Virus record (IMG/VR): IMGVR_UViG_3300035428_000399
Span: 25,124 to 89,123 of that record
DNA: 64,000 nt
DNA from: a virus
Taxonomy: Duplodnaviria > Caudoviricetes
Direction: 5' to 3' (one strand)
Below are positions 32,553 to 64,000 of this stretch, in pieces. The notes beneath the pieces were generated by a model. That model was not told where the DNA came from and searched no databases. It saw only the letters and a list, made by a program, of their open reading frames with translations. Within the stretch, counting starts at the first letter, position 1, and every line of letters begins with the position of its first letter. The position numbers and the translations under genes were made by a program.

Positions 32553-33617
32553 ATGATTAACTGGAATCAATTTACCGTAGACAACGGGGCGATTAACGAC
32601 CTTCGAGAGTTGCTCTTTCTCACGGTGTATGATGACCCGGACATCGACCTGACGGTAACGACCAAGACTGGCGTTACCAACGGCCAGAAGCTCGGCTACA
32701 TCAACGACCTCGGCGATGTCGGTGAAAAGGGCGGTGGTTGCGACCCCACTTACACGTCTGTGAACATCACCGGCATTCAGAAGGAATGGGAACTCGGTGG
32801 CTGGGAAATCCCCAAGGAAATCTGCTACGAAGACCTCGAGAACACCATCGCGGAGTCGTCCCTCAATACTGGCACCGACATCGCATATCTCCAGGACACT
32901 CCATACTGGGACCTCGTGCTCATGCCTCTTCTCGAAAAGGCTATCCGCGAAATGTTTTGGCGTATCGCGTGGTTCGGCGACAAAGACGCCAATAATCTCA
33001 CTGACGGTGGTATCCTCAAGGCTGGCATCAAACCCTCGCTCTTCACAATGTGCGACGGTCTTTGGAAGCGCCTTCAGGCCATCATCGCTGCCAATAACAA
33101 TCAGAGGACTATCATCGCGGCTAACGAAGAGACAACTTACCAGGCTCAGAAGAATGGGTTGCTCACTCCGGGCACCGCGATCAAGATTTTCGACACGCTT
33201 CTGTCCGACGCAGACTCTCGCATCTTCGACGACAGCAAGGCTGCCATCTTCTGTACGACCTCTATGTTCAAGGCTCTCCGCACCGATATCGTGGAACGCT
33301 ACGGCAAAACCACAATGCCTTTCGAGAACGTAGGTTCCGGCATCACACTCTCAGAGTATGACGGCCGTCCCATCTATGCCATTGACATCTGGGACCGCAT
33401 GATTGCTAAGTACGAGGACACTGGGACTGCTCTGAACTGTCCACACCGCGCTATCGTCTGCTCCCCCGAAAACCTTTTCGTGGGTACCAACGATAAGGAC
33501 AAGATCGCTAACCTCAGTATCTCTTTTAACGACAAGGACCGCAAGAACTACATCTACGCCGCTTCCAAAATCGGTACTCTTGTAGGTGAAGACGCACTAG
33601 TCCAGGTTGCAATCTAA
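32553..33617 (+). CDS. Major capsid protein
   Basis: 354 aa directly after the protease; size and position fit. Confidence 0.75.
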   Translation: MINWNQFTVDNGAINDLRELLFLTVYDDPDIDLTVTTKTGVTNGQKLGYINDLGDVGEKGGGCDPTYTSVNITGIQKEWELGGWEIPKEICYEDLENTIAESSLNTGTDIAYLQDTPYWDLVLMPLLEKAIREMFWRIAWFGDKDANNLTDGGILKAGIKPSLFTMCDGLWKRLQAIIAANNNQRTIIAANEETTYQAQKNGLLTPGTAIKIFDTLLSDADSRIFDDSKAAIFCTTSMFKALRTDIVERYGKTTMPFENVGSGITLSEYDGRPIYAIDIWDRMIAKYEDTGTALNCPHRAIVCSPENLFVGTNDKDKIANLSISFNDKDRKNYIYAASKIGTLVGEDALVQVAI

Positions 33618-33628
33618 ATCGAGAAGCT

Positions 33629-34225
33629 ATGGCTGCAGAAAGTTGTGATTACCAGTTGGCCGCTGACCTGGTGGCCAGCTGTACCGTAAAGCCGGTTAAA
33701 GGTATCAAGTCCCATGGTTTCATCATGAACTACAACGATATTGACATGGAGGCCACCGCACGCGATGAGAATAACCCCAATATCGTGAAGTCCCTCATTT
33801 TGAAGACCGGTAAGAAGGCCTACAAAATGTATGTTCCGGGCAAGAGCCCATACACTGGCACGAAAAAAACTATGTCAGCCGGAACATACCGTAACCGATT
33901 CAACAAGGACGTATCCATCGTCATCCTCGACAACGGACCCGATGTGTCGCACAACATCATCGACCAGCTCGCCAACGGCACTTTTGTAATCGTGCTTGAG
34001 AACAAATTCCCAGGCTCGGATAACAAGAACACTTTCGAGATCTATGGACTCGAAGCCGGCCTTACCGCGACTGCGCTCGACGATGATAAGTATTCTGACG
34101 ACACCGAAGGCGGTTGGCTTGCAACCCTTCAGGAAGAGAATGCCCCGACTTCAGGCATCTTTTTGTTCGGCGAAAGTCTGTCAGCAACTCGCACAGCCCT
34201 TGAATCTCTCGTCAGCGGTTCATAA
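33629..34225 (+). CDS. Putative major tail/structural protein
   Basis: 198 aa after the capsid gene; FEIYGLEAGL motif. Confidence 0.55.
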   Translation: MAAESCDYQLAADLVASCTVKPVKGIKSHGFIMNYNDIDMEATARDENNPNIVKSLILKTGKKAYKMYVPGKSPYTGTKKTMSAGTYRNRFNKDVSIVILDNGPDVSHNIIDQLANGTFVIVLENKFPGSDNKNTFEIYGLEAGLTATALDDDKYSDDTEGGWLATLQEENAPTSGIFLFGESLSATRTALESLVSGS

Positions 34226-36763: not shown

Positions 36764-39700
36764 ATGGGTCTGAATAATAAAACCAATCTCAAAAGTCAGG
36801 CCGACCTTATCAGATATGAGGACGGCGAGGGAAAAAATACAGCTGAACGTGTCGGCAAGGTAATTGCCGAGATTATCACAAATGCCGATCTGTCTCTAAC
36901 GACAGAGACTACCGAGCGCGTTGCAACGGATAATGCGCTCCAGCAGAGTGTGACGATAGCATCAAACACCGCAACTACGGCCTACAATGAGGCTAAAGAC
37001 GCTAAGACCAAAGTCTCGGCGGCTCAGTCAACAGCCAATGATGCCAAAACAACTGCTAATGCAGCAAAAGCTGTTACAGATACGAAAGGACGCCCGGGTG
37101 GTCTTGCGACACTTGACTCCGATGGGAAAGTGCCGGCGAATCAACTTCCAGGATATGTTGACGATGTAGTTGAGTTCAATGCCACAGTAAGTGGCGTAAC
37201 ATCCCAAATGGCATCAAGTGCACATAAATCAACTGATGCCGGATGTATGGTAGTGTATGACACAGACCATGATACATTTATACTCGCTGTATCCAAAATT
37301 GCCATATCCGATGCAACCGAATGGAGCGCCGTAAAGCGTCCGATTAAGGGCTCCAATATTGCCACTTCAGACTTAGAAGTAGGAGAGGCACAGAAACTCA
37401 ATGTCACTGATTATTGGCAAATAAACGACGGCAGCGCAATTCTGCGTCCATCACAGTTTACTTATTACAACAACTGGCTTGATGGAGACTCTTTCGGAGA
37501 GGGAACGCTGAATGGTCGCGTACCCAAAGCCGGGAAAATCTACACATGCACCTCAAACAACAAGACTTTCCGTTGGAGTGGTTCGGAACTCGTTACAATC
37601 GGCTCTGACCTCGCGCTTGGTCGCACGGCCAGCACAGCTTTTCCCGGAGATGCAGGTGCACAGCTCGAAGAAACGGTTAGCAATTACGGTAACTTGATTA
37701 TTCAAAACGAAAGCCATATCAATAGCATTGGCATTCTTCCCTGCGACGGCCAATGGGACGGCAAAGGAACCGCTCCAACGTCAGGTGTATGGCTTATTCC
37801 AAGCGAAGCGTATGAAAACGCCGTATGCTTTGAATCTTACGGTAATACCGATTTCTATGGCTATGCCCCCGAAGTCTACAATTCTGACGAGCAATACAAT
37901 CCAGGCTACATCTACCGTATCGGGGACGGATTATTCCGCATAGTCAATAACAAATTAGAGTCAACATCCGGCTCCGCTGTTGGCAATACCTACAATGCAA
38001 CGGTCGAGATACCACTGCCTGCCGGAGAGTATTACTCCGACATTATGGCTGAGACACAGACGCATAACGTTCTCACAGCTGTATTCAACGAGGGTAAGGC
38101 CTCTCTCGGTCTGACTATAACATTCGCCATCGGTCCCAGCTCATGGAAAACCTACCAATATGTCGGTCCGAACACAACCAGTCCGCAGTTTCTCAATGTC
38201 AACAACTGGATTGACATGGCTGGTATGTCGGCCGGTGCCGAAGCCATTATCAATGTCGATGCACTATGTCCTCGCAAAGTTGCCGGATATTATGACAAAG
38301 GAAGTGCCATTGACGCCATCCTCGAATTGCAGAACGCATCAGGCATCAAATATGCGAAGAGTGGTCTTGTCATCACATTCCGCACGGGCGAATACGCATG
38401 GGAAGCCTACCAGTTCACCGGCGAGGTTTCCGACTTCTCCAACAAAGACCTTTGGAAGCAGTTTGGTGGAGGTGGAACGGTAAAGACGTCCGCAACCCCA
38501 GAAAAAGACGGCAAGGATGCATTCTCTACCGGTGGCGCATACGATATGCAACAGAACGCTTTCGATCATCTTGACGTAGACCAAGATGCCGAGAACCACA
38601 TCATCAAAGCCATCAACAAGCTCGGCAACGAAATGGGCCAATCCATCTCTATCCCCAAGAGTAATGGAGGAGGCTCTGTGTCCGGCTCGTCGCTTAATAT
38701 CTATTTGGAAAACCCGGCGGTTTATGCTGCATTTGGCTCCGAAATTTCAGTTCGAGCAGCCATCAAGTCTGTAACATTCGATGGACAGGGAAGTAACGTG
38801 ACCGAGGTGCTCGGTGTAATCCGCCGTCTGGAAATCATCGATGCTACTTCCGGACTTACCTTATGGAGCGAGGCTATAAACCAAAATTCGTCTACAAGTC
38901 CAACGAATTACTCGTTCAAATACGACTTTACGCCGTATTTCTCTGAGGCTTCGGCACGCGACTTCACAATTGTTGCCTACGATGCCGAAGGGAACGTTAA
39001 ACGGCGCACCATTACTGTTACCGCCGTCGATGTAACATGTACCTCTGTCCAGACGCTGAACTATACTACCGGCTCTGTGCTTGAAGTTGGCGGGTCGACC
39101 AAGAACCTGCTGATGTATAAGTTTGCCAATAATGTATCGAAGCTCGGTGTAAAGGTTACAACTGAAATGTTCTTCAACGGGGAGTGGAAGAAGCTCGGCG
39201 AGTCTGTCATCACAGACAGTTATTCGCACTCAATTTCCATCGACCCATGCAACGTGTTCGGAGGAAACGAGAAACTGGCCCACGGGTCTTATGCAATCCG
39301 CATATCCGGCGAGGACGTGGCTTCCGGTGTCAAAGGTAACGTGATTTACAGTTCTATTATGTGTGTGGATTCCAAGTCCACGCAGCCCATTGTATCTATA
39401 CGCTACAACGACATCAACAATGGTACAATCCGCCTTTACGACAATCTTGAAGTCGAGGTTGCCGCTTATACGCCCGGCAAGACCTCAACAGCAGCTTCGG
39501 TATATATCGACGGCATTGAGGTTATTTCTACCGACATAGGTACCTCACAGACTGAAATCGTCCGCAAGCAGATTCAGGGCTATGACACAGACGGTTCCGA
39601 TACAATCTCAATCTACGCCAAGAGCGGAGACAGCCAGACCAATCCGATAACCGTTACCGTTGTAGGCTCGGCAATCTCTGCAATAATCAAGGAGGGAGCA

Positions 39701-42700
39701 TTGTTCGGCTTTGATTTTGCCTCCCGTTCCAACGCTGAGACAGACCACACAATATCCAACAATGGATATACGATGCAGGTCAACGGCTCCAACTGGTCAT
39801 CCAACGGATTTGTCAAGTATCTCGACGAAATGAGCCTCCGCATCGCCGAAAACGTCACAGCCAAGATTCCTTACGCACCATTTGGCACCGCCGCCACGGA
39901 GCGTACCAATGGTATGGCTTTCCAGTTTGCCTTCGCCACCAACAACATCAAGGACGACGAAGCCAAGCTCATGGAGTGCTATGACCCGGATTCTGGTGCC
40001 GGCTTCTACATCTGCGGTAACAAGGCCGTGCTGTTCTGCAAGAATGGTACGCCCTCCGTCATTACACGATCATTCAAGTGTAACGAGAAGCATACCGTAG
40101 CCATTGTTGTAGAACCGTCCACTATAACGGTAAAACGTGGCTCGACCGATTACTCCACAATCAAGCTGTATTTCGATGGCGAGGAAGCGGGATCTATCGG
40201 TTATATTGCCAACTCCGGCGCAATCCTCAATCAGAAGCAGATTGACTTCGATGGCACCGACGGCGACTTCTATCTCTACTACACTCTCGCATACGACAGC
40301 TACTATGAGTGGGCGCAGGCTTTCCAGAACTATCTCTGCAAACTTACCAATACGGACGAAATGATTAAAGAGTTCACCGATGAGGATGTGCTCGACAATC
40401 AGAACCGACCCTCGATGGATAAGTTCAAGGAGAAAGGAATCCCATACTATGTAGTAGTCGCTCCGCAGGCTACTTTCGACACATTCGACGGAGACATCAA
40501 CACATCGACCAAGTTTGAGTGTACGCTGTTCTACTTCGATCCTGCAAGACCTTGGAGGTCGTTCAAAGCTGAACACGTTCAGTGGCGCCGCCAAGGTACT
40601 ACATCTGCCAAGCGACCCATTAAGAACGACCGATTCTATCTGCGCAAGAATAAAGGGTGGAAAATCACTCCCCTCAATCCTGACTACACTAATGAAGACG
40701 CGCTCAAGACATACGAGCTGTTTGAAATCGGCTACATTCGTGTCGGTTTGAACACCATACCCGTCGCCATTATCACGGTCAAAGTGGACTACTCCGACTC
40801 CTCTATGGCGAACGACTGCGGTGTTTGTGATATGATGAATGCAACATTCCGAGCTCTCGGCTCCGACTACATTACTCCGGCCCAGCGAGCCTTTGATGGC
40901 ACATGGTCTAAGAGTGACGTAACCGTAACCGGGCTGCAGATGAATCATTCGACCGCAAATCATCCTATCGCTGCTTTCCGAGCTACTAACGACTCTCTCA
41001 GTGATGCGTGGTTCCATGCCCGTGGCAACTGGAAGGAGGATAAGGGCGAGCAGGTGGCACTTGGTTTCAAGGATACTCCCGGCTATAACCTTGGCTGCAA
41101 GAACTACGGCGACTTTGTGGAGTTTTTCGGCAAAGCATCATTCAATGCCGCCGGCAAATTCGTAAGTCAGGAATCACTGACAGAAATCATGGCTCGCTTC
41201 AAGGCCACCGAGGGACTTGATACGAGCAAGCTGTATCTACTGTCGCAGTATTGCGGCCGCGACTATGTTTTCATGCGTTACAGTGGCGGCGAGTGGGCCA
41301 GATCCAATGGCTCCATGAAGCAAATAAATGGAAAGTGGGTTATCCAAGGCGATGTTCTCAACCCCGTCAGCGGCTTCGAGCTGATTACCTACGACGCAAT
41401 GGACTGGTTCATGGGCGTAGGCTCTATCGATGACATGATGGCGCCGGTTGCGACACAATCCTCGTGGGTATCCAAACTGAATCTCGGCCAGCCGACTTAT
41501 CCCGCGTGGACACAGTATTTCGAGTGCATGGTTGACGACGACCAGCTTCAGGAAGACCTCGCGATGGGTCGCAAAGTCCCCTATGAGCTGTTCAATGTGC
41601 TCAAATTCTGCGATTCCTGCGACTATTCCAAGGCCGCGCTTGCAAATACATGGAAACAGTTGTGGCGTGAAAATGCGTGGAAATACATGAGCGTCCAATC
41701 GCTCATCGCATACTATACGTTCACAGATTACCTTGCCGCAGTGGACCAGCAGGCGAAGAATATGCAGCCTATGTTCTTCCTTGAGGACGGCTGCTGGGTT
41801 GAGAATGGTGTTTATCATACACCTTCCGCAATGGAGCCGGTCAGAATGTATTTCAATAAGGTTTACGACTGCGACACCTGCAACGGTAAGGATAACGATG
41901 GCGGCAACACCATTCCTGCAGAACTCGATCCTGCTGAGGACGACAAGTGCTACGCCGGTCGTGGCTCAATTCTCTGGAACAACCTACGTCGTTGCGACAA
42001 TCAGGAAATGGTGGCCGATGCAAACGGTAACACTCTCACGCTTCCCGGTGTCGTGGCAACGATGCGTAACCTTCCCGAAATCGACGGTATCGGTGCCGGT
42101 CCATTCTCGCCCAAGGGCGCACTCTATTACTTCGTTCAGAAGCGCATTTTGTTCTGGCCGAAGGTTGTCTGCACTTACGACTGCGAAAGCAAGTATATCC
42201 GCTACTCCGAGAAGTATACGGACATCTACTACTATGCCCTGCACGGTTCCGGCCGTCAGGCTCTGCCACGCTTCATTGAGCAACGCTGGCGCATTCGAGA
42301 CGGATACTATCAGACCGGCGACTTCAAGGACGCCAGTCATGTCCTCGGCGGCCGTATCGGCGCCAAGACGGGAGCCGTTATCAAATTCCGTGCCGGCAAA
42401 TCCGGCTACTACGGCATCGGTAACGATGGCGGTAATGTGACGCAGGGGATGTACCTCAAGGCCGGCGAGTATGGTACGTTTACCAATTTCCAGCACGGCG
42501 ACAATATCCTGCTTTACATCTACCAAGCCGACCAGATGAGTGAGATTGACCTCTCGCAAATCTCACTCGACCCGAACTTCCAGTTCTCGATGATGAAGCT
42601 CGCTGAGAAGATTGTAATTGGCTCCACAAACCACCGCCAGTCTTGGCGTCTGTCTCCCGGCAACACGGGCTTCCTTACCAACATGAATCTCGGCGACCTG

Positions 42701-44929
42701 CCGTTCCTGACTCACCTCGACGTGCGCACAACAGAGGTAACAAGCATCAATGCCTCCCGCTGTCCGCGAATGAAGACAGTGCTTGCATCGGGTTCTGACC
42801 TCACTGGTATATCTCTGGCAGAAACATCGCCTATCGATACTCTTGAATTGCCGGCATCCATGACGGAGCTGAATTTCGTCAACCTCCCGTATCTTACCTA
42901 TCCCGGAGGTTTGACAATCGCCGGTATGTCAAGCGTGAACCGTCTCATGCTCGCCGGATGTCCCAACATAGACCCATATAATCTTATCAATGGTATTGTC
43001 GGGTCGTCCAATCTTCGTTATCTCCGTTTGCCGGACGTAAACATCACGGCTCCTTCATCAATCCTCAAGTCACTTCGCACAAGCGGCGCCATCGGTCTCG
43101 ACCCGACGGGTAGTGCTTACGAGGAAAGCAACCAGTGCTCTGGCGTTACGGGTCGTTGGATAATGGAGGACCTTATCGACGATAACGAACTTGACAAGGC
43201 GCGTCCCGGAAGCCTCGCCGCGTACTTCCCGCAGTTGACCCTCTACAACTCGCAGTATTCATGCGTCCGTTTCGATGATACTGACGATGATTGCCAGAAC
43301 ATCACGAATCTCGACAACGGTACGAGCAAGGAAGAGTACGAGCCGAGCGGCCACTTCGTCAAGATATTCGATGCGGCTCACCCGTACCGATGCACCTACG
43401 ATTCCCGCGAGTCCAAGCTGCTCGCCCGTCAGATTATGGATACCAACTACAATCTGATGGCCGACGGCACCGAGTATGATCCGACGGACCAAGCAGGTGA
43501 AGGTTTCGATGTGATGCTCGGTTTCGGCCGATATTGGTATAAGGGAGTCAATGACTTCAAGAACCAGAAGAAGTATCTTTTTGCTTGTAGCTTTGCCTCT
43601 CAGCCACTCTCTACGGCAATGAAAACCAATCGCGAGAAACTGGCTGATATTCTCGTCAAGGCGTATTCATGCGTCTACACGACCAATAACGGTACAGCTC
43701 TCTCGAAGGGTGACGACTACGAGATAGTCGACAACGCCAATATGAATGTCTATGAACTCGATGTCGAGGGCATGAAGCAGGTCCGCTGGCCCGGACTCAA
43801 CAATGCACAGATCGGCGCTGTGTTCGTAGACGAGAATGACAAGATTGTAGGTACGTTCAATATGGCTGTAAGTCATTCATTGTTCGATTTCACCTACGGC
43901 GATTATGTGTTCTGCGATGTACCGAGTGGTGCCAAGAAAATAATATTTACGTCCCCGACGGGTTTCGATGATCTCGAAGCCATTGCGGTTGACAGTGCCG
44001 CTATCGAGGCTATCGAACCAGATTGGGTATGGGTACCCATGCGCTTCGTCGGCATCTACGGCATGAGTGTCGACGCTCTTATGCGCCCTCGCTCAATCAG
44101 TGGCGTAAGGACTCGCACAGGTACCGGTACGTCGGTAACGAATGCCGATTGGAAGTACGATAACGAGGGTAACATTACGAATACCTCCGTTCCTACCTCC
44201 ACGATGAACTACACCTATGCCGATATACTCAATCTGATTGAAATGCGCGGCAAGGGATTCCACGGCATCAGTTATGAAATAAGCAAGGACATCGCCAATC
44301 TCGTGATGGCGTTGACTGGCACTCGCGACATTCAGGCTTACGCCGGATATGGATGTGGCTCGCAGTATACTACGGGACAGAACAATTTCAATACCTATGG
44401 CAAGGTAACGAGAAAGTATTCCGGCGGCAATATCGGCAACATCATCTTCGGTATTCAGAACTTCGTGGGCTGTAACTGGGAAATCATGGACCTCATCGCC
44501 GCCAACGTGCCGTCTTTTGCCCAGTTCAAGAAAGATAAGCGTATCGCTACAAGCTCGTACCCGATTGATGCGAAATACCATGTAGTCCGCAACTATCAGA
44601 CAAAAGAAGAAAGCGTAATCCAGGGACTCAACACATCTGGTTACTGTATCGGCCGTGTTAAATTCGGTAGATACTGCGATGTAATCGCCTCGCGTGTAAC
44701 CACCGACAACAGCAAGTGGAATAAAAACTACTCTGACTGTATGTGGTACACCCATGACAGAGGCCGGTGCGTCGGTCGGTCGAGCAACGTTGCGGTCGCG
44801 TATGGCGGTCTCGTCTTCTCGAACGCGAATGACGCTTCTTCGTTCTCGGGCGCGTATGTCAGCTCTCGGCTCGCCTTCAGCGGAAATTACGAAATAGTTG
44901 AAACAGCGGAATGCGTGGAGGTAGCATAA
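36764..44929 (+). CDS. Giant tail fibre/adhesin (2721 aa), DGR target 1
   Basis: Beta-rich domains, CotH-kinase-like segment, LRR-like repeats and a C-terminal C-type-lectin-like domain containing VR1. Confidence 0.85.
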   Translation: MGLNNKTNLKSQADLIRYEDGEGKNTAERVGKVIAEIITNADLSLTTETTERVATDNALQQSVTIASNTATTAYNEAKDAKTKVSAAQSTANDAKTTANAAKAVTDTKGRPGGLATLDSDGKVPANQLPGYVDDVVEFNATVSGVTSQMASSAHKSTDAGCMVVYDTDHDTFILAVSKIAISDATEWSAVKRPIKGSNIATSDLEVGEAQKLNVTDYWQINDGSAILRPSQFTYYNNWLDGDSFGEGTLNGRVPKAGKIYTCTSNNKTFRWSGSELVTIGSDLALGRTASTAFPGDAGAQLEETVSNYGNLIIQNESHINSIGILPCDGQWDGKGTAPTSGVWLIPSEAYENAVCFESYGNTDFYGYAPEVYNSDEQYNPGYIYRIGDGLFRIVNNKLESTSGSAVGNTYNATVEIPLPAGEYYSDIMAETQTHNVLTAVFNEGKASLGLTITFAIGPSSWKTYQYVGPNTTSPQFLNVNNWIDMAGMSAGAEAIINVDALCPRKVAGYYDKGSAIDAILELQNASGIKYAKSGLVITFRTGEYAWEAYQFTGEVSDFSNKDLWKQFGGGGTVKTSATPEKDGKDAFSTGGAYDMQQNAFDHLDVDQDAENHIIKAINKLGNEMGQSISIPKSNGGGSVSGSSLNIYLENPAVYAAFGSEISVRAAIKSVTFDGQGSNVTEVLGVIRRLEIIDATSGLTLWSEAINQNSSTSPTNYSFKYDFTPYFSEASARDFTIVAYDAEGNVKRRTITVTAVDVTCTSVQTLNYTTGSVLEVGGSTKNLLMYKFANNVSKLGVKVTTEMFFNGEWKKLGESVITDSYSHSISIDPCNVFGGNEKLAHGSYAIRISGEDVASGVKGNVIYSSIMCVDSKSTQPIVSIRYNDINNGTIRLYDNLEVEVAAYTPGKTSTAASVYIDGIEVISTDIGTSQTEIVRKQIQGYDTDGSDTISIYAKSGDSQTNPITVTVVGSAISAIIKEGALFGFDFASRSNAETDHTISNNGYTMQVNGSNWSSNGFVKYLDEMSLRIAENVTAKIPYAPFGTAATERTNGMAFQFAFATNNIKDDEAKLMECYDPDSGAGFYICGNKAVLFCKNGTPSVITRSFKCNEKHTVAIVVEPSTITVKRGSTDYSTIKLYFDGEEAGSIGYIANSGAILNQKQIDFDGTDGDFYLYYTLAYDSYYEWAQAFQNYLCKLTNTDEMIKEFTDEDVLDNQNRPSMDKFKEKGIPYYVVVAPQATFDTFDGDINTSTKFECTLFYFDPARPWRSFKAEHVQWRRQGTTSAKRPIKNDRFYLRKNKGWKITPLNPDYTNEDALKTYELFEIGYIRVGLNTIPVAIITVKVDYSDSSMANDCGVCDMMNATFRALGSDYITPAQRAFDGTWSKSDVTVTGLQMNHSTANHPIAAFRATNDSLSDAWFHARGNWKEDKGEQVALGFKDTPGYNLGCKNYGDFVEFFGKASFNAAGKFVSQESLTEIMARFKATEGLDTSKLYLLSQYCGRDYVFMRYSGGEWARSNGSMKQINGKWVIQGDVLNPVSGFELITYDAMDWFMGVGSIDDMMAPVATQSSWVSKLNLGQPTYPAWTQYFECMVDDDQLQEDLAMGRKVPYELFNVLKFCDSCDYSKAALANTWKQLWRENAWKYMSVQSLIAYYTFTDYLAAVDQQAKNMQPMFFLEDGCWVENGVYHTPSAMEPVRMYFNKVYDCDTCNGKDNDGGNTIPAELDPAEDDKCYAGRGSILWNNLRRCDNQEMVADANGNTLTLPGVVATMRNLPEIDGIGAGPFSPKGALYYFVQKRILFWPKVVCTYDCESKYIRYSEKYTDIYYYALHGSGRQALPRFIEQRWRIRDGYYQTGDFKDASHVLGGRIGAKTGAVIKFRAGKSGYYGIGNDGGNVTQGMYLKAGEYGTFTNFQHGDNILLYIYQADQMSEIDLSQISLDPNFQFSMMKLAEKIVIGSTNHRQSWRLSPGNTGFLTNMNLGDLPFLTHLDVRTTEVTSINASRCPRMKTVLASGSDLTGISLAETSPIDTLELPASMTELNFVNLPYLTYPGGLTIAGMSSVNRLMLAGCPNIDPYNLINGIVGSSNLRYLRLPDVNITAPSSILKSLRTSGAIGLDPTGSAYEESNQCSGVTGRWIMEDLIDDNELDKARPGSLAAYFPQLTLYNSQYSCVRFDDTDDDCQNITNLDNGTSKEEYEPSGHFVKIFDAAHPYRCTYDSRESKLLARQIMDTNYNLMADGTEYDPTDQAGEGFDVMLGFGRYWYKGVNDFKNQKKYLFACSFASQPLSTAMKTNREKLADILVKAYSCVYTTNNGTALSKGDDYEIVDNANMNVYELDVEGMKQVRWPGLNNAQIGAVFVDENDKIVGTFNMAVSHSLFDFTYGDYVFCDVPSGAKKIIFTSPTGFDDLEAIAVDSAAIEAIEPDWVWVPMRFVGIYGMSVDALMRPRSISGVRTRTGTGTSVTNADWKYDNEGNITNTSVPTSTMNYTYADILNLIEMRGKGFHGISYEISKDIANLVMALTGTRDIQAYAGYGCGSQYTTGQNNFNTYGKVTRKYSGGNIGNIIFGIQNFVGCNWEIMDLIAANVPSFAQFKKDKRIATSSYPIDAKYHVVRNYQTKEESVIQGLNTSGYCIGRVKFGRYCDVIASRVTTDNSKWNKNYSDCMWYTHDRGRCVGRSSNVAVAYGGLVFSNANDASSFSGAYVSSRLAFSGNYEIVETAECVEVA
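44762..44878 (+). repeat. DGR variable repeat VR1
   Basis: 117-nt ungapped match to TR with 20 mismatches, all at TR adenines. Confidence 0.97.
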
Positions 44930-44940
44930 CGAAAAGCGTC

Positions 44941-44976
44941 GCTTCGGTTTCGGGCAACAAAGCCCGGAGCCGAAGC
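44941..44976 (+). other. GC-rich hairpin downstream of VR1 (candidate DGR target-recognition element)
   Basis: GCTTCGGTTTCGGGC-AACAAA-GCCCGGAGCCGAAGC: 15-bp stem with 2 G-T pairs, no T tract. Confidence 0.6.
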
Positions 44977-45054
44977 CCGTTCCATATTGTCAAACCCTTA
45001 AAATCAAGAGATAACAAGGAAAAAGAAACTTTCAAAAAAGGTAGAACCTTCCAT

Positions 45055-45171
45055 AGCCGGTGCGTCGGTCGGTCGAACAACAATGCGAACGCGAATGGCG
45101 GTCTCGTCTACTCGAACGCGAATAACGCTTCTTCGAACTCGAACACGAATAACAGCTCTCGGCTCACATTA
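45055..45171 (+). repeat. DGR template repeat TR
   Basis: 12 AAC/AAT codons in the target reading frame; lies between VR1 and the RT gene; followed by a stem (45183-45263) and a GAAA-loop hairpin (45274-45287). Confidence 0.97.
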
Positions 45172-45326
45172 AGGAATAAAACGGTGCTCCCTCACCGTCA
45201 ACATAATCGCAAGACCCTGGACGATGTCGCGTACATCAATCTATTCTGCGAGGAAGGTGCACCTCGGCAACAGCAGACGAAAGTCTGGAAAGCGGAAAAA
45301 TCTCGGAAGTCCTGAAGGCTTTAATT

Positions 45327-46826
45327 ATGGAAAAGATTTTTGACATACCATTTATGGATGTGGACCTCCCGGCAAAAACTCCGGAGCGCGACACTGTGTC
45401 GTTTCCGTTGTATAATCTATTGCCGGAGATCATCGATGACAAGAATCTTGAAGAAAGTTTCGACGACCTTGTAGGCAATCTCGAAAATAAATATCAACGT
45501 GAATACCACAAAAGCAAAAAGGCTGATACCCTAAAAAATCTCAAGAAGGAACTATCGGACGGTACGTTCTTTCTTGCCCGTGAAGAACTGCGGGAGTTGT
45601 ATGTCAGGGATGGATACAAGCCCCGAATAGTCCATGCGCCTCCGGTTTATAAGAGAATCGGAGTACAAGCAGTCATGAGGGTTGTCGAGAAATATATTTA
45701 CCCGACACTCATTACGAATACAGCCGCGAGCATCAAGGGCCGTGGTATGCACTGGCTGCACCATATTGTAGAGGAGGACATAAAGGCAGACCCGACCAAC
45801 ATGCAAAATTACGGGCAGAGCGATGTTTTCCACTATTACGACAGCATCGTTCAGGAAATGATGAAGGCTATTGTCAGGGAGTATATTGGCGACCCCGTAG
45901 CCCTGAAATACCTGGATAATTTCATTGAACTGATGCCTGAAGGTCTTTCCAAAGGGCTGCGTTCCTCTCAAGGTCTTGCCAATCTTTATTTGTCTGCGGT
46001 TGATAAAATCATGTGTCAGAATGTGAGCTATCACACCGTTGAGATAGATAATAAAGATGAGGTTATGGCCCAGGGGCGCGGCAGGGTCTATACTGATAAG
46101 GGAGACGAGATTCATTATCATTATTACCGTTATTGTGACGACATAGTATTCTTCGCCTCCACAAAAACCGAATGCTGGAAATTGTATGACCTATTGAAAT
46201 CTGAGCTTGAAAAACTTGGATTGAAGATAAAAGACAATTTCGCAATAAGACCTATATCTGAAGGACTTGACTTTCTTGGCTTCAAGACATTTGGTAAATG
46301 GGAAACCGTCAAAGGGCAGCAGCATTGGGAAGTCTATTCGCGCCTCCGAAAGAGAATCAAAGTTAAAGCGGCGAGAGCATTACATAGGGTTAAATCCCGC
46401 AAGCGTCGCCAACAGATAATAGGCTCATTCAAAGGTATGGCCTGCCATGCCGATTGCAAACATCTATATTTCAAATTAACTGGACAACATATGGCAAAAT
46501 TCAGCGAATTGGGGTTGAAATATACTCCGGCAGATGGTAAAAAACGATTCAGCTGCCAGCATATGTCGCTTGGCTCGATAACAAACAGACCAATTGAGCT
46601 TCTGGACTACGAGAAAGACATCAAGACACGTTGGGGAGAATCCCGATATGTCGTGCTGTTCCACTTTGTAGGTGATGTGACAGAATACAAATTCTTCACG
46701 GACAGCGAAGAAATGAAGTCTTTGCTCGACCAGATGAAAGATCGGGGACTTCTCCCCGGCATGGTAGAGACAACAATCGTGCAGAAGCAGGGCACCGGCG
46801 CTCTACGAATTTATTCATTCTCATAA
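45327..46826 (+). CDS. DGR reverse transcriptase with C-terminal extension
   Basis: ASIKGRG, GLSKGLRSSQ.LANLYL, YYRYCDD (46131-46142) and GLDFLG motifs. Confidence 0.95.
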   Translation: MEKIFDIPFMDVDLPAKTPERDTVSFPLYNLLPEIIDDKNLEESFDDLVGNLENKYQREYHKSKKADTLKNLKKELSDGTFFLAREELRELYVRDGYKPRIVHAPPVYKRIGVQAVMRVVEKYIYPTLITNTAASIKGRGMHWLHHIVEEDIKADPTNMQNYGQSDVFHYYDSIVQEMMKAIVREYIGDPVALKYLDNFIELMPEGLSKGLRSSQGLANLYLSAVDKIMCQNVSYHTVEIDNKDEVMAQGRGRVYTDKGDEIHYHYYRYCDDIVFFASTKTECWKLYDLLKSELEKLGLKIKDNFAIRPISEGLDFLGFKTFGKWETVKGQQHWEVYSRLRKRIKVKAARALHRVKSRKRRQQIIGSFKGMACHADCKHLYFKLTGQHMAKFSELGLKYTPADGKKRFSCQHMSLGSITNRPIELLDYEKDIKTRWGESRYVVLFHFVGDVTEYKFFTDSEEMKSLLDQMKDRGLLPGMVETTIVQKQGTGALRIYSFS

Positions 46827-46836
46827 TATTCCGAAC

Positions 46837-47334
46837 ATGGAAAAAAGATACGGCGCGCCAGGCCCGCAGAATGGTCTGGAGAAGATCGGAACAAAGAAGT
46901 GGGCTGTTTTCTACGGCTTCGGCAAAGATACCGAGGACGCAGAGACCGGCTATAACTGGTATCAGACATACGACCACCGACCGAGCCTCGACGAAATCAA
47001 GGCCGACATCGTGGCTGTAATCAAGGCCGAGAGCGACCTTAAACTTCGCTATGGCTATAAATGGAACGGCATGACCGTGGAATACTCTGAAGCTCTGAAA
47101 ACCGACCTCACGGGTATGCTCGTCGCCATTCAGGGAGGCATGATGCAGTTCCCGGTTGAAGTCAACCTCGGAAGCCAGTCGGACGGCACCCCGCAGGTCT
47201 ATCCATTCTCCAGCCTTGAAGAACTCGGAGCTGTCGCCGCCGGCATCGCTGCGCATCGTGCGCAAGTCAGCAAAGAGGAATGGGCGGCAATCCAGGCCCT
47301 CGGCGACATGGAAGAATACTCAGAAGTTCAGTAA
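46837..47334 (+). CDS. Hypothetical protein (possible tail fibre accessory)
   Basis: 165-aa ORF directly after RT; function inferred from position. Confidence 0.55.
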   Translation: MEKRYGAPGPQNGLEKIGTKKWAVFYGFGKDTEDAETGYNWYQTYDHRPSLDEIKADIVAVIKAESDLKLRYGYKWNGMTVEYSEALKTDLTGMLVAIQGGMMQFPVEVNLGSQSDGTPQVYPFSSLEELGAVAAGIAAHRAQVSKEEWAAIQALGDMEEYSEVQ

Positions 47335-51987: not shown

Positions 51988-52017
51988 CCTACCACAGCAG
52001 TTTCCCAATAGGTTCGC

Positions 52018-52070
52018 TGCGCCCGGCAGACTGCATAGCCATTTGCAGTTTGTCGGGCGCTTTTCGTTAT
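52018..52070 (+). terminator. Probable intrinsic terminator upstream of metK
   Basis: GCGCCCGGCAGACTGCA/TGCAGTTTGTCGGGCGC stem with 2 G-T pairs, followed by TTTTCGTTATT. Confidence 0.65.
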
Positions 52071-52133: not shown

Positions 52134-53396
52134 ATGGGAAAGTATTTTTTTACCTCGGAATCCGTGTCAGAGGGACATCCCGACAAGGTGGCGGACCAAA
52201 TCTCGGACGCCATCGTAGACGCATTTCTGGCAAAGGATCGCGACTCAAGAGTCGCCTGCGAAACTCTCGTAACCACCGGCCAGGTTATCATCGCCGGCGA
52301 ATATCGTTCAACCGCAAGAGTGGATGTTCAAGACATCGCCCGCAAAGTTATAAGCCGCATCGGATATAACAAGAGCGACTACAAATTCGACGCTGAATCC
52401 TGCGGAATACTGAACGCTATGCACGGCCAGAGCGACGACATCAACCGTGGCGTATCCCGCGAGACAGAGGAAGCCCAAGGTGCCGGCGATCAGGGCATGA
52501 TGTTCGGCTTCGCTACCAACGAAACCGAAACCTATCTGCCTCTTTCGCTTTACCTGAGCCACAAGCTCCTTCAGGAACTCTCGGCAATCCGCCGCGAGGG
52601 CAAGGCAATGACTTATCTACGCCCCGACGCCAAGAGCCAGGTTACAGTCGAATACGATGACGAGAGCAAGCAGCCGTGCAGAATCCACACAATCGTCATT
52701 TCCACACAGCACGACGACTTCATCAAGGCTGAGCACGGGCTTCCACAATCTGCCGCCGACACTCTCATGCTCAACCGCATCAGCGAGGACGTGAAGAACA
52801 TTCTTCTGCCCCGAGTCATTTCCCATCTCCAGCCGGAAGTGGCCGCGCTCTTCGATGCAAACCTTATTCTCCATGTAAATCCCACCGGCAAGTTTGTCAT
52901 CGGCGGTCCCCATGGCGATACCGGCCTCACAGGTCGCAAGATCATCGTCGATACCTACGGAGGTCACGGAGCCCACGGCGGCGGTGCTTTCTCCGGCAAA
53001 GACCCCTCGAAAGTAGACCGGTCAGCCGCTTATGCCGCCCGCCACATCGCAAAGAACCTCGTTGCCGCAGGTATAGCTGACGAAGTGCTTGTGCAGGTAG
53101 CATACGCAATCGGCGTGGCTCAGCCCGTGAGCCTCTATGTAAGCACCGTCCGTCGACACGTCCCTTACGCCGACTCCGAGGTTGCCAACATCGTCTCTCG
53201 CCTCGTAGACCTGACACCAGCCGGCATCAACAAACGTCTCAGGCTCCGCAATCCCATATACGAGCCCACCGCCTCTTACGGACACTTCGGCCGCATCCCA
53301 ACAACCAAGGTAGTGAACGGCGAGGAAGTCGAACTCTTTACATGGGAGAAACTCGACCTCGTGGACGAATTCAAGAAAGCTTTCAACATCGACTAA
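52134..53396 (+). CDS. metK: S-adenosylmethionine synthetase
   Basis: [40 protein letters not shown] and [15 protein letters not shown] motifs; TAACTTTG box at 52091-52098. Confidence 0.97.
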
Positions 53397-57799: not shown

Positions 57800-57981
57800 A
57801 ACGTATCAGCAAGGAGGAGGGAGAGCGCGTGGATATCCACCGCTTTCCTAACTTCAGCGCGTCCGGAAGTGTGATCGGAATGAGAAATCTCTACTACGGG
57901 AGAAATGCGCTACTTGTACGTTGTGGCTCCTTTATATATAATGTATCATTAGAACCGGCAATTTACGAAAACGCAAAATGA
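57778..57981 (+). CDS. Small hypothetical phage protein
   Basis: FPNF...GS..GM...YYG..ALLVRCG.FIYNV motif; overlaps both neighbours. Confidence 0.55.
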   Translation: MGRPPRVKRISKEEGERVDIHRFPNFSASGSVIGMRNLYYGRNALLVRCGSFIYNVSLEPAIYENAK

Positions 57982-59428: not shown

Positions 59429-59758
59429 ATGACAGCATCAGCAATCAAATTCGTTCCATGGGACACCAAACCTCTCGAATCCCTCAAGGACAGCATTGCG
59501 TTCAAGATGAGAAGCCTCATCAATTCAGGCGCAAAACTCAACCGGGCGCAGAAGAATTGGATTACAAATCGCGTGAATAGTAATACTTATTTCAACAATG
59601 CCATACCCGTGCAGGGCTGGGCGTTTACATTCTCCGACGTCCTCAAGAAATTCGTGGTAAAGCAATGCGGTCAATGCGCAGAGTATTACGCCGTCGATAA
59701 AACTTCGTTGCGGGAATACCTCGGCTCCGGAATAGAGTATATTGTTGAAGTGAAATGA
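59429..59758 (+). CDS. Hypothetical protein
   Basis: 109-aa coupled ORF. Confidence 0.6.
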   Translation: MTASAIKFVPWDTKPLESLKDSIAFKMRSLINSGAKLNRAQKNWITNRVNSNTYFNNAIPVQGWAFTFSDVLKKFVVKQCGQCAEYYAVDKTSLREYLGSGIEYIVEVK

Positions 59759-60762
59759 GAATGTATAAACACGAAAAGGTAAGCATCATCCGTGAAACGG
59801 GGGAGAGAGTGGATGCTGTCGCTCCCATTGTCATATCTGCGAGTCGGAGTACGGACATACCGGCATTTCATTTAGATTGGTTTTTCAACCGCCTCAAGAG
59901 AGGATATTGCTCGTGGGTTAATCCGTTCAATCAAAAGGCGTCTTATGTCTCATTCCAAAATACAAGAGTGGTAGTGTTCTGGTCTAAAAATCCCGTAGCA
60001 CTCATAGACCGATTGAAGGAACTATCCAGCCGCAATATAAACTGCTATATCCAGTTTACTCTCAACGATTATGCGGCCGAAGGGTTTGAACCCAATATCC
60101 CTGAGCTAACTAAGCGAATAGATACATTCAAACGCCTCGTTGACATTTTAGGTGTGGGCTCCGTTATCTGGAGATACGACCCGGTCATTCTGACGGATAA
60201 TCTTCATATAGAAGACCACCTCGAAAGGATAGAGAAAATCGGTTGCGAACTCAATGGTTATTGTGAGAAACTTGTATTCAGTTTCGCAGACATCGCCGGG
60301 TATCGTAAAGTTCAGTACAATCTCATTCAAAGTGGAATAAAGTATGTCGATTTCAACCACGAAAGCATGACTAAATTTGCCGACAGTCTCACTCGACTAA
60401 ACAAGAACTTCGGTTTTGAAATCGCAACCTGCGGAGAGCAGATTGACTTGTGCAAGTTCGGCATCGAAAAGAATCGTTGCGTTGATCCCTTACTAATGGT
60501 CCGGCTATTCAAAGATGACGAAAGACTAATGTCATGGCTCGGCTATTCGGATATGTTTGGCGCCCCGGAATCCTTTCCCAAAGACCCCGGACAAAGGTCT
60601 GTATGTGGCTGTGTCCTCAGCAAGGACATCGGAGCATATAACACCTGCGGTCACGGCTGCGTATATTGCTATGCTAACGTAACACCGACATACGGCAAGC
60701 AGGGCTGTGTGCGGGCTCAAAGCGACACAAAACGCGAGTCAGTAATCTCTCAAGTAAATTGA
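59755..60762 (+). CDS. DUF1848-family Fe-S / radical-SAM-like protein
   Basis: IISASRSTDIPAF, VFWSKNP, WRYDP and SKDIGAYNTCGHGCVYCYAN (CxxxCxxC) motifs. Confidence 0.85.
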   Translation: MRMYKHEKVSIIRETGERVDAVAPIVISASRSTDIPAFHLDWFFNRLKRGYCSWVNPFNQKASYVSFQNTRVVVFWSKNPVALIDRLKELSSRNINCYIQFTLNDYAAEGFEPNIPELTKRIDTFKRLVDILGVGSVIWRYDPVILTDNLHIEDHLERIEKIGCELNGYCEKLVFSFADIAGYRKVQYNLIQSGIKYVDFNHESMTKFADSLTRLNKNFGFEIATCGEQIDLCKFGIEKNRCVDPLLMVRLFKDDERLMSWLGYSDMFGAPESFPKDPGQRSVCGCVLSKDIGAYNTCGHGCVYCYANVTPTYGKQGCVRAQSDTKRESVISQVN

Positions 60763-60976: not shown

Positions 60977-61019
60977 AGAGCGTTAAATCGTGAATATGAT
61001 TAGCCCAACCGCCAAAAAA

Positions 61020-61112
61020 TTGCGTATATGATTAAAATAATCGCCCTAAAACTTGCGGAATTGATTATTTATGACTAACTTTGCAAGTGCAAATAAGATA
61101 CTTCTAATCAAA
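61020..61112 (+). promoter_or_regulatory. Repeated phage promoter module, copy h
   Basis: TTGCGTATATGATTA (61020) and TTGCGGAATTGATTA (61053); -7 TAACTTTG 61076-61083. Confidence 0.85.
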
Positions 61113-61125
61113 CAATCTCAAACAA

Positions 61126-61722
61126 ATGGAAGCAATCCAATTCAACAAAGAGACGTTGGTAGCCGTCTACGGCAACTGCAACGCCGTCGGCCGCAAGGCC
61201 ATCAAGGAACAGCTCGGAGAAAGACTTTCCGAAATCCTCCCCGTAACAGACCGTGTAAAAACCTTCAATGATGCGGTCGAGGAACTCGGCGAAGAACACG
61301 AAGCTGTAAAAGCCTACCGTGCCGTGGAGTGGTATCTCCGTAACCAAATGTCCGACATCAAGGCATACCTCCATCTACGCATCATCACCGCCGCCCTCAA
61401 TGAGGGATGGGAGCCCCAGTTTGTCGAGGGCGAGCGCCGCTGGTACGGGTGGTACGACCTCATCAGCAAGGAAGACTACGAGGCTCTTTCCGATGAAGAA
61501 AAGGGCCGGTGCGTCGGTCGGTCGTACAACAATGCGAACGCGTATGGCGGTCTCGTCTGCTCGTACGCGAATAGCGCTTCTTCGTACTCGGGCGCGAGTT
61601 TCAGCTCTCGGCTCACATTCAAAAGCGAAAAGCTGGCTGAGTATGCAGCCAAACAATTCATCGAAATTTACGCCGATCTCTGCTTCATCCCCAAAGCTCC
61701 GGACGCCAAGGAGTCGAAGTAA
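61126..61722 (+). CDS. Small protein carrying VR2 (DGR target 2)
   Basis: 198 aa, no signal peptide. DRVKTFNDA, LRIITAALNEGWEP and SRLTFKSEKLAEYAAKQF motifs flank the VR-encoded segment. Confidence 0.9.
   Translation: MEAIQFNKETLVAVYGNCNAVGRKAIKEQLGERLSEILPVTDRVKTFNDAVEELGEEHEAVKAYRAVEWYLRNQMSDIKAYLHLRIITAALNEGWEPQFVEGERRWYGWYDLISKEDYEALSDEEKGRCVGRSYNNANAYGGLVCSYANSASSYSGASFSSRLTFKSEKLAEYAAKQFIEIYADLCFIPKAPDAKESK
61504..61620 (+). repeat. DGR variable repeat VR2
   Basis: 117-nt ungapped match to TR with 14 mismatches, all at TR adenines. Confidence 0.97.
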
Positions 61723-61737
61723 CCGAAGTATTTCCTC

Positions 61738-61771
61738 CGTGGAGGCTCGATCGTGTAGACGAGCCTCCACG
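61738..61771 (+). other. Perfect 12-bp hairpin downstream of VR2 (candidate DGR target-recognition element)
   Basis: CGTGGAGGCTCG-ATCGTGTAGA-CGAGCCTCCACG, no T tract. Confidence 0.6.
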
Positions 61772-61784
61772 AAATGCCAAAGAT

Positions 61785-62516: not shown

Positions 62517-62717
62517 ATGGTAACATCAATAGAACCGAAAGTAGCACCGACCGGACGATATACCGTCAAGCAGACGTGCGAATGCCTCGGCATTCACCGC
62601 AATACGCTACGCCGGTATACCGACGAAGGACATATCAAGTGCAGTTTCCGTAGAGAAAATGCGAGAAAAATATATCTGGGAAAAGAAATCCTCCGATTTT
62701 GGAACTCCCAGCTTTAA
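62517..62717 (+). CDS. Excisionase-like HTH protein
   Basis: YTVKQTCECLGIHRNTLRRY...G.I (MerR/Xis-type HTH), next to the integrase. Confidence 0.8.
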   Translation: MVTSIEPKVAPTGRYTVKQTCECLGIHRNTLRRYTDEGHIKCSFRRENARKIYLGKEILRFWNSQL

Positions 62718-62803: not shown

Positions 62804-64000
62804 TCACTCTCCTTTAATAACCCGGTCGATCACACGTCGGTTAGCTACATCGACTTTACGCATATTGTAGTCGATATAAATGGCCGACGTTGCGTTACCA
62901 TGAGAGTGTCCGAGGCTTTTGGCTATCGTAGCGTCAGGAACGTCAAGATCCGAAGCAATCGTGGCCCAAGTATGACGCGCCCAGTACGAAGTCAACTCCT
63001 GAAGGACTATGCCATCGTCCACAGCATTGAAAGCATCTTTGATTTTCACCAATCCCTTTTGAAGACAGTTATAGAACGTCCGATAAGACTTATGAGTGTC
63101 GAGGTAATTCAGGAGATACTTTTCTCCCTTATATTTCTCAATGAGGGCCATCGCCTCCGGCTCAACTTTTATGGAGTAGAGCTTATGGGTCTTAGAGCGC
63201 CGGTATTCAAATCTTCCGTCTACCAATTCGACTGCCTGGCAAATATCCACCACGTTGGCTCCGATGAGGTAGAACGAGAGCATGAAGAAATCCCGGTACT
63301 TCTCAAGATAAGGCTCCACTTTCAAATCTTTCAGCTTGCGAAGAGCCTCTACCGGCATGGAACGCTTTCGAGTTTCCTCGTATCGCAGTTTGAACTTTCG
63401 GAATGGGTAAGCAGTAGTCACATCATTATCGATAGCGTAGTTGAATACCGCACGAATATTTCTAAGATTGATATTACGGGCGTTGCGAGCCGGGGAGGTC
63501 TTGGCGAGGAATGCGTCAAACTCCGCCAGCCATTCAACAGTGATGTCCTCAAATTTAAGCTGACGATATGTCTTCGGTCGGAATCTCTTGATATGATTCA
63601 GGGTTGTCTCATAAATCCCCTTGGTGCGGAGCATCTTCGTACTCGAGAACTTGACAAACCAGTTATAGAACGTTGTAGATTTGTCAGACTCTTCAGGATT
63701 CAACCGCTGAACAATGACATTCTTGATGTCGGTAACAGTACCCGCAGTTTCTTTTGCCGCAGTAAGAGTGAGAACAATCTCATCTACCTCTAGCTTTCTT
63801 TTATTTATATAGGTATTGAAAAACAGACGCTTCGGATGGGAAACCACGCATTGTTTTATAGGATTCCATTGCTCCATCAAGAGGGATATCCCAAGTGGTA
63901 TGTACGCCGTGGACCCCTTTTTGGTAATCGCTATCTTCAACGGCGCGGGTCCATTTCCTTTCACAGCTCGCCTGTCGAGGTAGATCTTTGTTGTAATCAT
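62804..64000 (-). CDS. int: Tyrosine integrase (Bacteroidetes type with N-terminal arm and SAM-like domains)
   Basis: Catalytic-region motifs RRSKT (K), YWARHTWAT (H position as Y, then R), LGHS and IY. Confidence 0.93.
   Translation of the reverse strand: MITTKIYLDRRAVKGNGPAPLKIAITKKGSTAYIPLGISLLMEQWNPIKQCVVSHPKRLFFNTYINKRKLEVDEIVLTLTAAKETAGTVTDIKNVIVQRLNPEESDKSTTFYNWFVKFSSTKMLRTKGIYETTLNHIKRFRPKTYRQLKFEDITVEWLAEFDAFLAKTSPARNARNINLRNIRAVFNYAIDNDVTTAYPFRKFKLRYEETRKRSMPVEALRKLKDLKVEPYLEKYRDFFMLSFYLIGANVVDICQAVELVDGRFEYRRSKTHKLYSIKVEPEAMALIEKYKGEKYLLNYLDTHKSYRTFYNCLQKGLVKIKDAFNAVDDGIVLQELTSYWARHTWATIASDLDVPDATIAKSLGHSHGNATSAIYIDYNMRKVDVANRRVIDRVIKGE

Follow-up and report, generated by a model that had tools for sequence, protein, structure and literature searches.

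Phage DGRs are usually explained as receptor-switching devices. The gene located at positions 61126 to 61722 (plus strand) of the window, by which we mean the whole stretch of 64,000 nucleotides of phage DNA that was analysed, encodes a protein of 198 amino acids which a previous sequence-only reading took for the second target of a DGR, and for a small intracellular protein instead of a tail fibre. The locus thus raises the question of whether such a protein is really diversified by a DGR and, if so, what use a phage could have for it. Apart from its presence in the list of open reading frames, the gene is defined by its match to the protein family phrog_11581 and by 94 natural variants of the same length.

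The window contains three copies of a 117-bp repeat, of which none would be expected in shuffled sequence. These are VR1 (44762..44878, plus strand), the template repeat or TR (45055..45171, plus strand) and VR2 (61504..61620, plus strand), the latter lying 16 kb away from the rest of the cassette. VR1 encodes the C-terminus of a giant fibre-like protein of the tail region (2721 aa, 36764..44929, plus strand, phrog_14959), which is the first target of the DGR, and VR2 encodes residues 127-165 of the 198-aa protein (GRCVGRS from residue 127, SRLTF to residue 165), just where the sequence-only reading had placed it. TR and VR2 can be compared over 117 bp without gaps and are 88% identical. In ungapped comparison all mismatches fall on adenines of the TR, 14 of 14 for VR2 and 20 of 20 for VR1, and in the frame of VR2 they hit the first and second positions of AAY codons. 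The TR has 31 adenines, including those of the edge codons, and 12 AAY codons, giving a capacity of approximately 10^17 protein variants, and no substitution at a TR adenine can create a stop codon, the frame of VR2 included. Moreover, the same GC-rich 13-mer closes all three repeats.

The DGR reverse transcriptase (RT) is encoded by a single ORF just past the TR (499 aa, 45327..46826, plus strand). Its YCDD motif was read from the translation, its match to Pfam RVT_1 is weak (E 3.8e-5, under the Pfam cut-off) and all RT families of NCBIfam remained under their cut-offs as well; a homologous RT was found in 19 of 39 related records. In a 154-kb record with terminal repeats (L010; G002:C1:26865-27473) the sole interruptions of an RT-like match are TAG codons in frame (2 and 3), a hint that TAG may be reassigned in that phage. 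The ORF which follows the RT (165 aa, 46837..47334, plus strand, phrog_19239) is a candidate accessory gene: in 12 of 80 loci it is found together with the RT, and it may encode an accessory protein. No Avd homolog was recognised, and the 134-aa 'ORF' overlapping the TR (44911-45315) is probably not a gene. In the established mechanism of DGRs the RNA of the TR is copied by the RT with misincorporation at adenines, and the resulting cDNA overwrites the VR. Mismatches between TR and VR2 that are confined to TR adenines, together with an RT adjoining the TR, bear out the proposal of a second target, and the small protein is the remote second target of the single DGR of this prophage.

The natural variants show that this target is active. 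A search of 5.8 billion proteins provided 94 distinct relatives of 198 aa, 88-95% identical. In their alignment the entropy averages 2.34 bits over the 16 codons with TR adenines and 0.068 bits over the other 182 positions. Up to 12 residue types are found among them at a single AAY position, and this tolerance implies that these positions are exposed. Serine, glycine, asparagine, tyrosine, aspartate and valine are common at the TR-adenine codons, and threonine, proline and arginine are rare. This residue spectrum matches the base spectrum at TR adenines, A-to-C changes being rare in both VRs. Since the variation is found almost solely on the 16 TR-adenine codons, the pattern is the signature of ongoing DGR mutagenesis and not of ordinary divergence.

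The protein itself has neither a signal peptide nor a transmembrane helix, as had been stated from the sequence alone. The call was repeated here with a plain hydropathy test, not with SignalP: the maximum Kyte-Doolittle value (window of 19) is 0.84, there is no hydrophobic N-terminal core and the pI is 5.2. In PHROGs the protein matches phrog_11581 over its full length (residues 1-190, E 3.1e-43), and profile searches of Pfam, NCBIfam and PADLOC gave no match. An exhaustive HMMER search collected 1194 clusters at 50% identity, 485 of them at E<=1e-10. The members are nearly all 160-260 aa long (typically about 190 aa) and are homologous over residues ~37-187. The N-terminal part of their consensus reads TFEDA..ELG, AALNEGW.P.F and E.RYYPWF, it is followed by a variable stretch, and past this stretch the consensus ends in GSRLAFK..ELAEYAGKQF..IWADF. 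The family is built on a conserved and mostly helical scaffold, formed by residues ~37-126 and by C-terminal helices (166-187), which together flank a hypervariable stretch of ~30 residues. There are indeed 33 residues after VR2, and they had been described as a tail; the conserved end of the family consensus makes them instead an element of the core fold, namely the helix motif that is best conserved in the family, and not an appendage. A VR-type segment is moreover a feature of the whole family. Proteins in which the scaffold (residues 37-126) is part of a longer fusion, fusions to structural domains included, were not found, in a search that provides weak evidence, and among 111 family members there was no Pfam match to Ig or Fn3.

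Members of the family are present in more than 540 IMG/VR loci and in the genomes of 228 GTDB species, mostly Bacteroidales (Muribaculaceae, Bacteroidaceae, Prevotella, Rikenellaceae and Porphyromonadaceae for the most part). The closest GTDB relatives (91%) belong to Muribaculaceae MAGs from the mouse gut, and judging from this similarity Muribaculaceae are the likely host of the prophage.

It had been suggested that a predicted structure might reveal a minimal C-type lectin. When AlphaFold2 was given a diverse alignment of 111 sequences, the model (pLDDT 84, pTM 0.78) consisted of twelve helices with the VR as a loop, the latter (residues 131-155) at pLDDT below 50; a run on the 94 near-identical variants, a shallow alignment, reached a pLDDT of 43 and was discarded. 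The model has strand marks one residue long near positions 106 and 165, a hint that the RWYGW segment may touch the SRLTF segment. With this model, in which the VR loop is poorly modelled, neither a C-type lectin nor another convincing fold was matched: Foldseek reached a best E of 3.8 in the PDB, the best Z of VIA-align over 48,161 chains was 3.9 with no lectin among the best 50 matches listed, and a second structure search of the PDB found nothing. The matches in BFVD and the ESM Atlas are only unnamed proteins of gut phages, some of them crAss-like, and a feature search of the ESM Atlas with the 198-aa protein gave no named cluster. The family profile found no lectin among PDB sequences either, its one weak and short match being TIM44 (E 0.005). 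The mostly helical model does not support the expected lectin fold, but with the VR loop at a pLDDT below 50 the protein may be a lectin in much reduced form as well as another kind of scaffold.

The relation to the fibre was examined with a profile built from 15 fibre C-termini, which was compared with the alignment of the small-protein family by hhalign. Just the 42 columns of the VR align and nothing upstream of them. The consensus motif of the fibre C-termini (G..ENF.GC..EW.DN) has no counterpart in the small protein; we take this motif to be typical of DGR targets of the FGE-type lectin fold. A single TR therefore supplies the same segment to two scaffolds without detectable sequence relation.

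The arrangement with two targets is not particular to the window. In all seven IMG/VR loci having the whole cassette inside the flank, the mismatches of the small-protein VR to the TR lie at adenines in 10/10, 12/13, 12/12, 12/12, 13/13, 12/12 and 21/21 cases. Altogether the trio of TR, VR1 and VR2 was found in 20 distinct phages, the window and LoVEphage included, with six non-adenine mismatches overall, and the small proteins of these phages, at least 20 in number, are 35-60% identical. A related RT is present in 12 of 17 near-complete records searched. Three complete genomes (G005, G012 and G015, that is loci L023, L039 and L043), of which two have terminal repeats, encode a member of the family that is intact, and were searched without finding an RT or a second copy of the repeat. 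Their orphan members keep a typical VR-like segment, rich in Y, S and G and diversified in appearance. These members may be frozen, or another element may perhaps serve them in trans, and they imply that the protein can persist without ongoing diversification.

VR1 and VR2 are also partially coupled to each other. Of 139 TR adenines mutated in both VRs of one genome, 81 (58%) have become the same base in the two, against 45% in an in-register null taken between genomes, and the observed value was reached by 3 of 5000 derangements. Fourteen of 19 genomes are above the null (the loci compared being the window and L007, L018, L024, L027, L035, L038, L044-L046, L048, L050, L055, L057, L064, L066, L068, L073 and L089/L091). 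When three near-duplicate phages are left out the values become 57% and 45.5%, and 21 derangements in 5000 reach the former. Sites mutated in both VRs are about as numerous as expected (139 observed, 124 expected), and the excess sharing amounts to about one extra site per genome. Gene conversion between VR1 and VR2, related cDNAs serving both VRs, selection for related ligands and recent changes of the TR are all possible causes.

The genomic context of the family gives the best indication of where the protein might act. Eighty IMG/VR loci, each with flanks of 10 kb, were screened with a panel of labelled proteins. An MBL-fold hydrolase on the same strand as the member was found in 27 of the loci, at a median of 213 bp upstream, and other neighbours on the same strand were an SMC/SbcC-like ATPase (24), HTH_17 (24), a helicase/primase (23), SSB (17), DUF6291 (12) and RecT (7). 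Homologs of terminase, portal, capsid-like, protease and tape-measure proteins were found in 0-1 of the 80 loci, and in 10 loci the RT-fibre cassette lies on the strand opposite to the member. The result was repeated with 80 loci from bacterial genomes, where early markers were present in 57 and a structural marker of any sort in 0-1; the structural markers were counted within 6-10 kb of the member in these two independent sets. The order in L085 is integrase ... HTH_17, SMC-like, RecT, MBL, two other genes, member, ..., PcfK, PcfJ ... SSB, and that in phage Versailles is repressor, sigma factor, SbcC-like, RecT-like, MBL hydrolase, NinB, one other gene, member, ..., replisome organiser, DnaC-like loader. 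Taken over the 160 loci, the co-orientation with early recombination and replication genes and the near absence of structural genes support the statement that the protein is not a tail fibre, as far as gene neighbourhoods can tell. This early-operon context argues against a fibre and does not thereby prove an intracellular role. The Versailles member (ON453897.1, 10181..10762; L106:7001-7582) is labelled 'tail protein', by way of HHpred against PHROGs only, and this label was probably assigned wrongly on account of the shared VR. Proteomics on virions was found neither in the Versailles paper nor for any phage carrying a member.

In the window the gene is located upstream of the xis/int region as described earlier, with an HTH_17 xis-like gene at 62517..62717 and the integrase at 62804..64000 (minus strand) downstream of it. 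In this lineage it is three genes away from xis/int, and the order DUF1848, p70, target, p163, p74, xis, int is retained in the close kin L005-L009. The DUF1848 gene (radical-SAM-like, 59755-60762), two genes upstream of the target, matches the PADLOC model 'RTasDUF1848' (E 4.5e-38), which is associated with defence RTs. In LoVEphage and Versailles, too, radical-SAM genes lie close to the member of the family. In addition, a full-length putative S-adenosylmethionine synthetase (MetK-like, 420 aa, 52134-53396), identified from its translation, is encoded just upstream of the lysis genes.

The gene has, as was claimed, its own copy of a repeated promoter-like element (61015..61112, plus strand), consisting of a half copy at 61015-61034 and a full block of ~85 bp at 61030-61112, with the -33 TTG at 61053-61055 and the -7 motif TAACTTTG at 61076-61083. 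The block is of the Bacteroidetes type (-33 TTG / -7 TAnnTTTG) and exists in eight copies, all on the plus strand and each 30-60 nt before an ORF, starting at 886, 17006, 20609, 24727, 48300, 49050, 55245 and 61030. It is conserved well past these motifs, with a TGCAAATAAGAT box after the -7, and this extended conservation suggests a site for a phage-specific regulator or a leader. Replication genes, clusters of small genes and the operon encoding the protease, capsid-like and portal proteins (copy 24727) are headed by such copies. Because the same element heads a structural operon, it is uninformative on the timing of the target gene, and its use as a sign of lysogenic or early expression was dropped.

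Past the stop codon of the target gene there is a GC-rich hairpin (61738..61771, plus strand; 12-bp perfect arms, no T tract; -29 kcal/mol, z -5.4), and another follows the stop codon of the VR1 gene (44941..44976, plus strand; -31.3 kcal/mol, surpassed in stability by just one 50-nt window of the 64 kb). They start 118 nt past VR2 and 63 nt past VR1, respectively. In BPP-1 the elements by which the target is recognised lie at the 3' end of the VR and comprise the IMH and a hairpin downstream. Such a recognition role of the hairpins seen here was considered and judged unlikely: the four most stable of the 64 kb (52016-52065, 44931-44980, 57811-57860 and 61726-61775), among which those of the VR1 and VR2 genes rank second and fourth of all 50-nt windows, are all just past stop codons and without T tracts, and relatives with proven TR targeting are mostly without a comparable hairpin. 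The four are consistent with terminators of the Bacteroidetes type, and that at 61738-61771 is most likely a terminator.

Our reading of these data, which we hold with moderate confidence and which leans largely on gene context, is that the protein is a remote second DGR target and a non-virion, cytoplasmic binder belonging to the early genes, which would adapt to a variable intracellular partner. Virion proteins are also devoid of signal peptides, and this counts against the non-virion part of that reading. The protein could instead be an accessory adhesin or receptor-binding protein of the virion, a helical scaffold placed on the capsid or tail and presenting a variable surface like that of the fibre. 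Small protein and fibre have the VR segment and the TR in common and show an excess of identical substitutions within genomes, the Versailles homolog bears the annotation of a tail protein, and surface adhesins are known as second targets in phages, the tentaclins being an example (PMC10743442). However, structural markers occur at 0-1 loci in each set of 80 whereas the member is co-oriented with early recombination and replication genes, the RT-fibre cassette can lie on the opposite strand, searches revealed neither a domain of the Ig or fibre type nor fused forms, and the Versailles label comes from HHpred in a paper without proteomics. Such an adhesin is in our opinion unlikely. The position of the gene in the window leads to another possibility, that of a moron-like gene expressed from the prophage and providing the lysogen with a variable superinfection exclusion or anti-phage function. 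It would explain the own promoter copy together with the strong post-stop hairpin, the location three genes from xis/int with the synteny kept in L005-L009, and the PADLOC match of the DUF1848 gene to an RT-associated model. In most other phages, however, the gene is not next to the integrase but inside an early lytic operon, past repressor/cro-like and recombination genes, the hairpin is missing in many relatives and the promoter element is not specific to the target gene, so that we regard this possibility as rather improbable.

It should also be considered that VR2 might be an off-target of the DGR that is tolerated, or a by-product, with no adaptive diversification, the protein doing a constant job by means of its conserved scaffold. 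The intact members in the three complete genomes without RT or TR copy agree with this. Yet at least 20 phages retain the arrangement with two targets although their small proteins have diverged to 35-60% identity, the VR-type segment is family-wide and the codon design of the TR avoids stops in the frame of VR2 too, which leaves the by-product as a very improbable explanation.

By the established mechanism the RT (45327-46826) makes from the RNA of the TR (45055-45171) a cDNA with errors at adenines, and this cDNA overwrites both VR1, in the fibre of 2721 aa, and VR2, in the 198-aa ORF. According to the reading of a cytoplasmic early-gene binder, the 198-aa protein would be made together with the early genes and would remain in the cytoplasm outside the virion, its conserved scaffold perhaps docking to a constant partner and its variable face letting the phage track a variable intracellular one. 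A component of a host defence system or a nuclease, a host factor needed after entry or a protein of a competitor would be candidates for the latter. It can purely be conjectured, as in the sequence-only reading, that defence proteins, regulators or proteins of rival phages might be bound. The DGR would here tune one step beyond adsorption. Against this reading, the substitutions shared by VR1 and VR2 could reflect a functional link of the small protein to the fibre. A bolder version can be formulated from this excess, which would make the specificity of the protein partly coupled to that of the fibre: a non-lectin, non-Ig, helical cytoplasmic platform receiving the ~40-residue segment of the fibre and acting as a programmable intracellular binder. 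We consider this version quite doubtful. If it were true, such a binder might capture or block the receptor pathway in a cytoplasmic form, or neutralise a variable nuclease or defence protein of the host beside the recombination module of the phage, and DGRs would be determinants of post-entry host range. The existence of a widespread and conserved second target in early operons suggests that targeted hypermutation is also used past DNA entry, with counter-defence, capture of host factors and phage-phage competition as possible roles.

The best known DGR target, Mtd of phage BPP-1, is a virion protein at the tip of the tail fibre, with a C-type lectin fold and the VR at its extreme C-terminus adjacent to the TR. 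It has in common with the system described here the adenine-specific transfer from TR to VR by an RT, the design with AAY codons and a binding surface that varies. Unlike Mtd, the target in the window is 16 kb away, stands in an early-gene context, has a scaffold modelled as helical and continues past the VR with a conserved 33-aa helix. Tentaclins, the second targets of DGRs of gut myophages, are predicted surface adhesins of 313-649 aa with the VR near the 5' end, an N-terminal C-lectin domain, 1-4 Ig-like domains and, at the C-terminus, an Ig domain anchoring them to the virion (Baykov et al. 2023, PMC10743442). They have in common with our case a second target within one phage and a single TR, but the family of the window does not have the C-lectin/Ig architecture, being represented here by a 198-aa protein with a helical model and no Ig/Fn3 match.

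The closest precedent is the DGR of Quimbyvirus, which has a structural target and also a distal one, located among genes for methyltransferase, nuclease and tRNA ligase and called a C-type lectin protein; an involvement in conflict between phage and host was proposed (Benler et al. 2021, PMC8008677). The supplements of that paper contain no text on the lectin assignment, and in the protein of the window no lectin similarity is detectable. LoVEphage carries a clear member of the family (MW660583, CDS 33613..34197, QVQ57199.1), annotated as 'hypothetical, no HHsearch hits', that matches the family profile at E 1e-50. All 17 mismatches between VR and TR of this second target are at TR adenines, and its neighbours are cytosine and adenine methyltransferases, a radical-SAM protein and an RtcB tRNA ligase. 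The equivalence of the LoVEphage and Quimbyvirus targets fits by the matching neighbourhood, the Quimbyvirus target being known by its description. The proteins of LoVEphage and the window belong to the same family, both being small remote targets of a fibre-adjacent DGR, without a signal peptide and with non-structural neighbours. Nevertheless they are only ~35-40% identical, the host of Quimbyvirus and LoVEphage is Bacteroides while it is probably Muribaculaceae here, the RT is divided there into three frameshifted ORFs and is a single ORF here, and the gene of the window adjoins xis/int and has its own promoter and terminator.

Members are also present in other cultured phages. Bacteroides phage BT-TP2 (PQ571279.1; L088/L090) has a full-length member, split over the ends of the record (44940-45221 and 1-327) and left unannotated, as well as a TR and a VR in a 2265-aa fibre; the DGR targets given in the BT-TP2 paper are only those of ~2000 aa. 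Phages BI-TP1 and PV4-TP1 carry members of the LoVE type. Large surveys such as that of Roux et al. 2021 state that remote targets escape them, so that this class of targets is under-counted. With BT-TP2, BI-TP1, PV4-TP1 and Versailles all carrying a member in culture, the proposals made here can be tested at the bench. The kind of system described was published already in 2021, and very probably the family with it; what is added here is the difference between the two scaffolds, the existence of orphan members and the partial coupling of VR1 and VR2.
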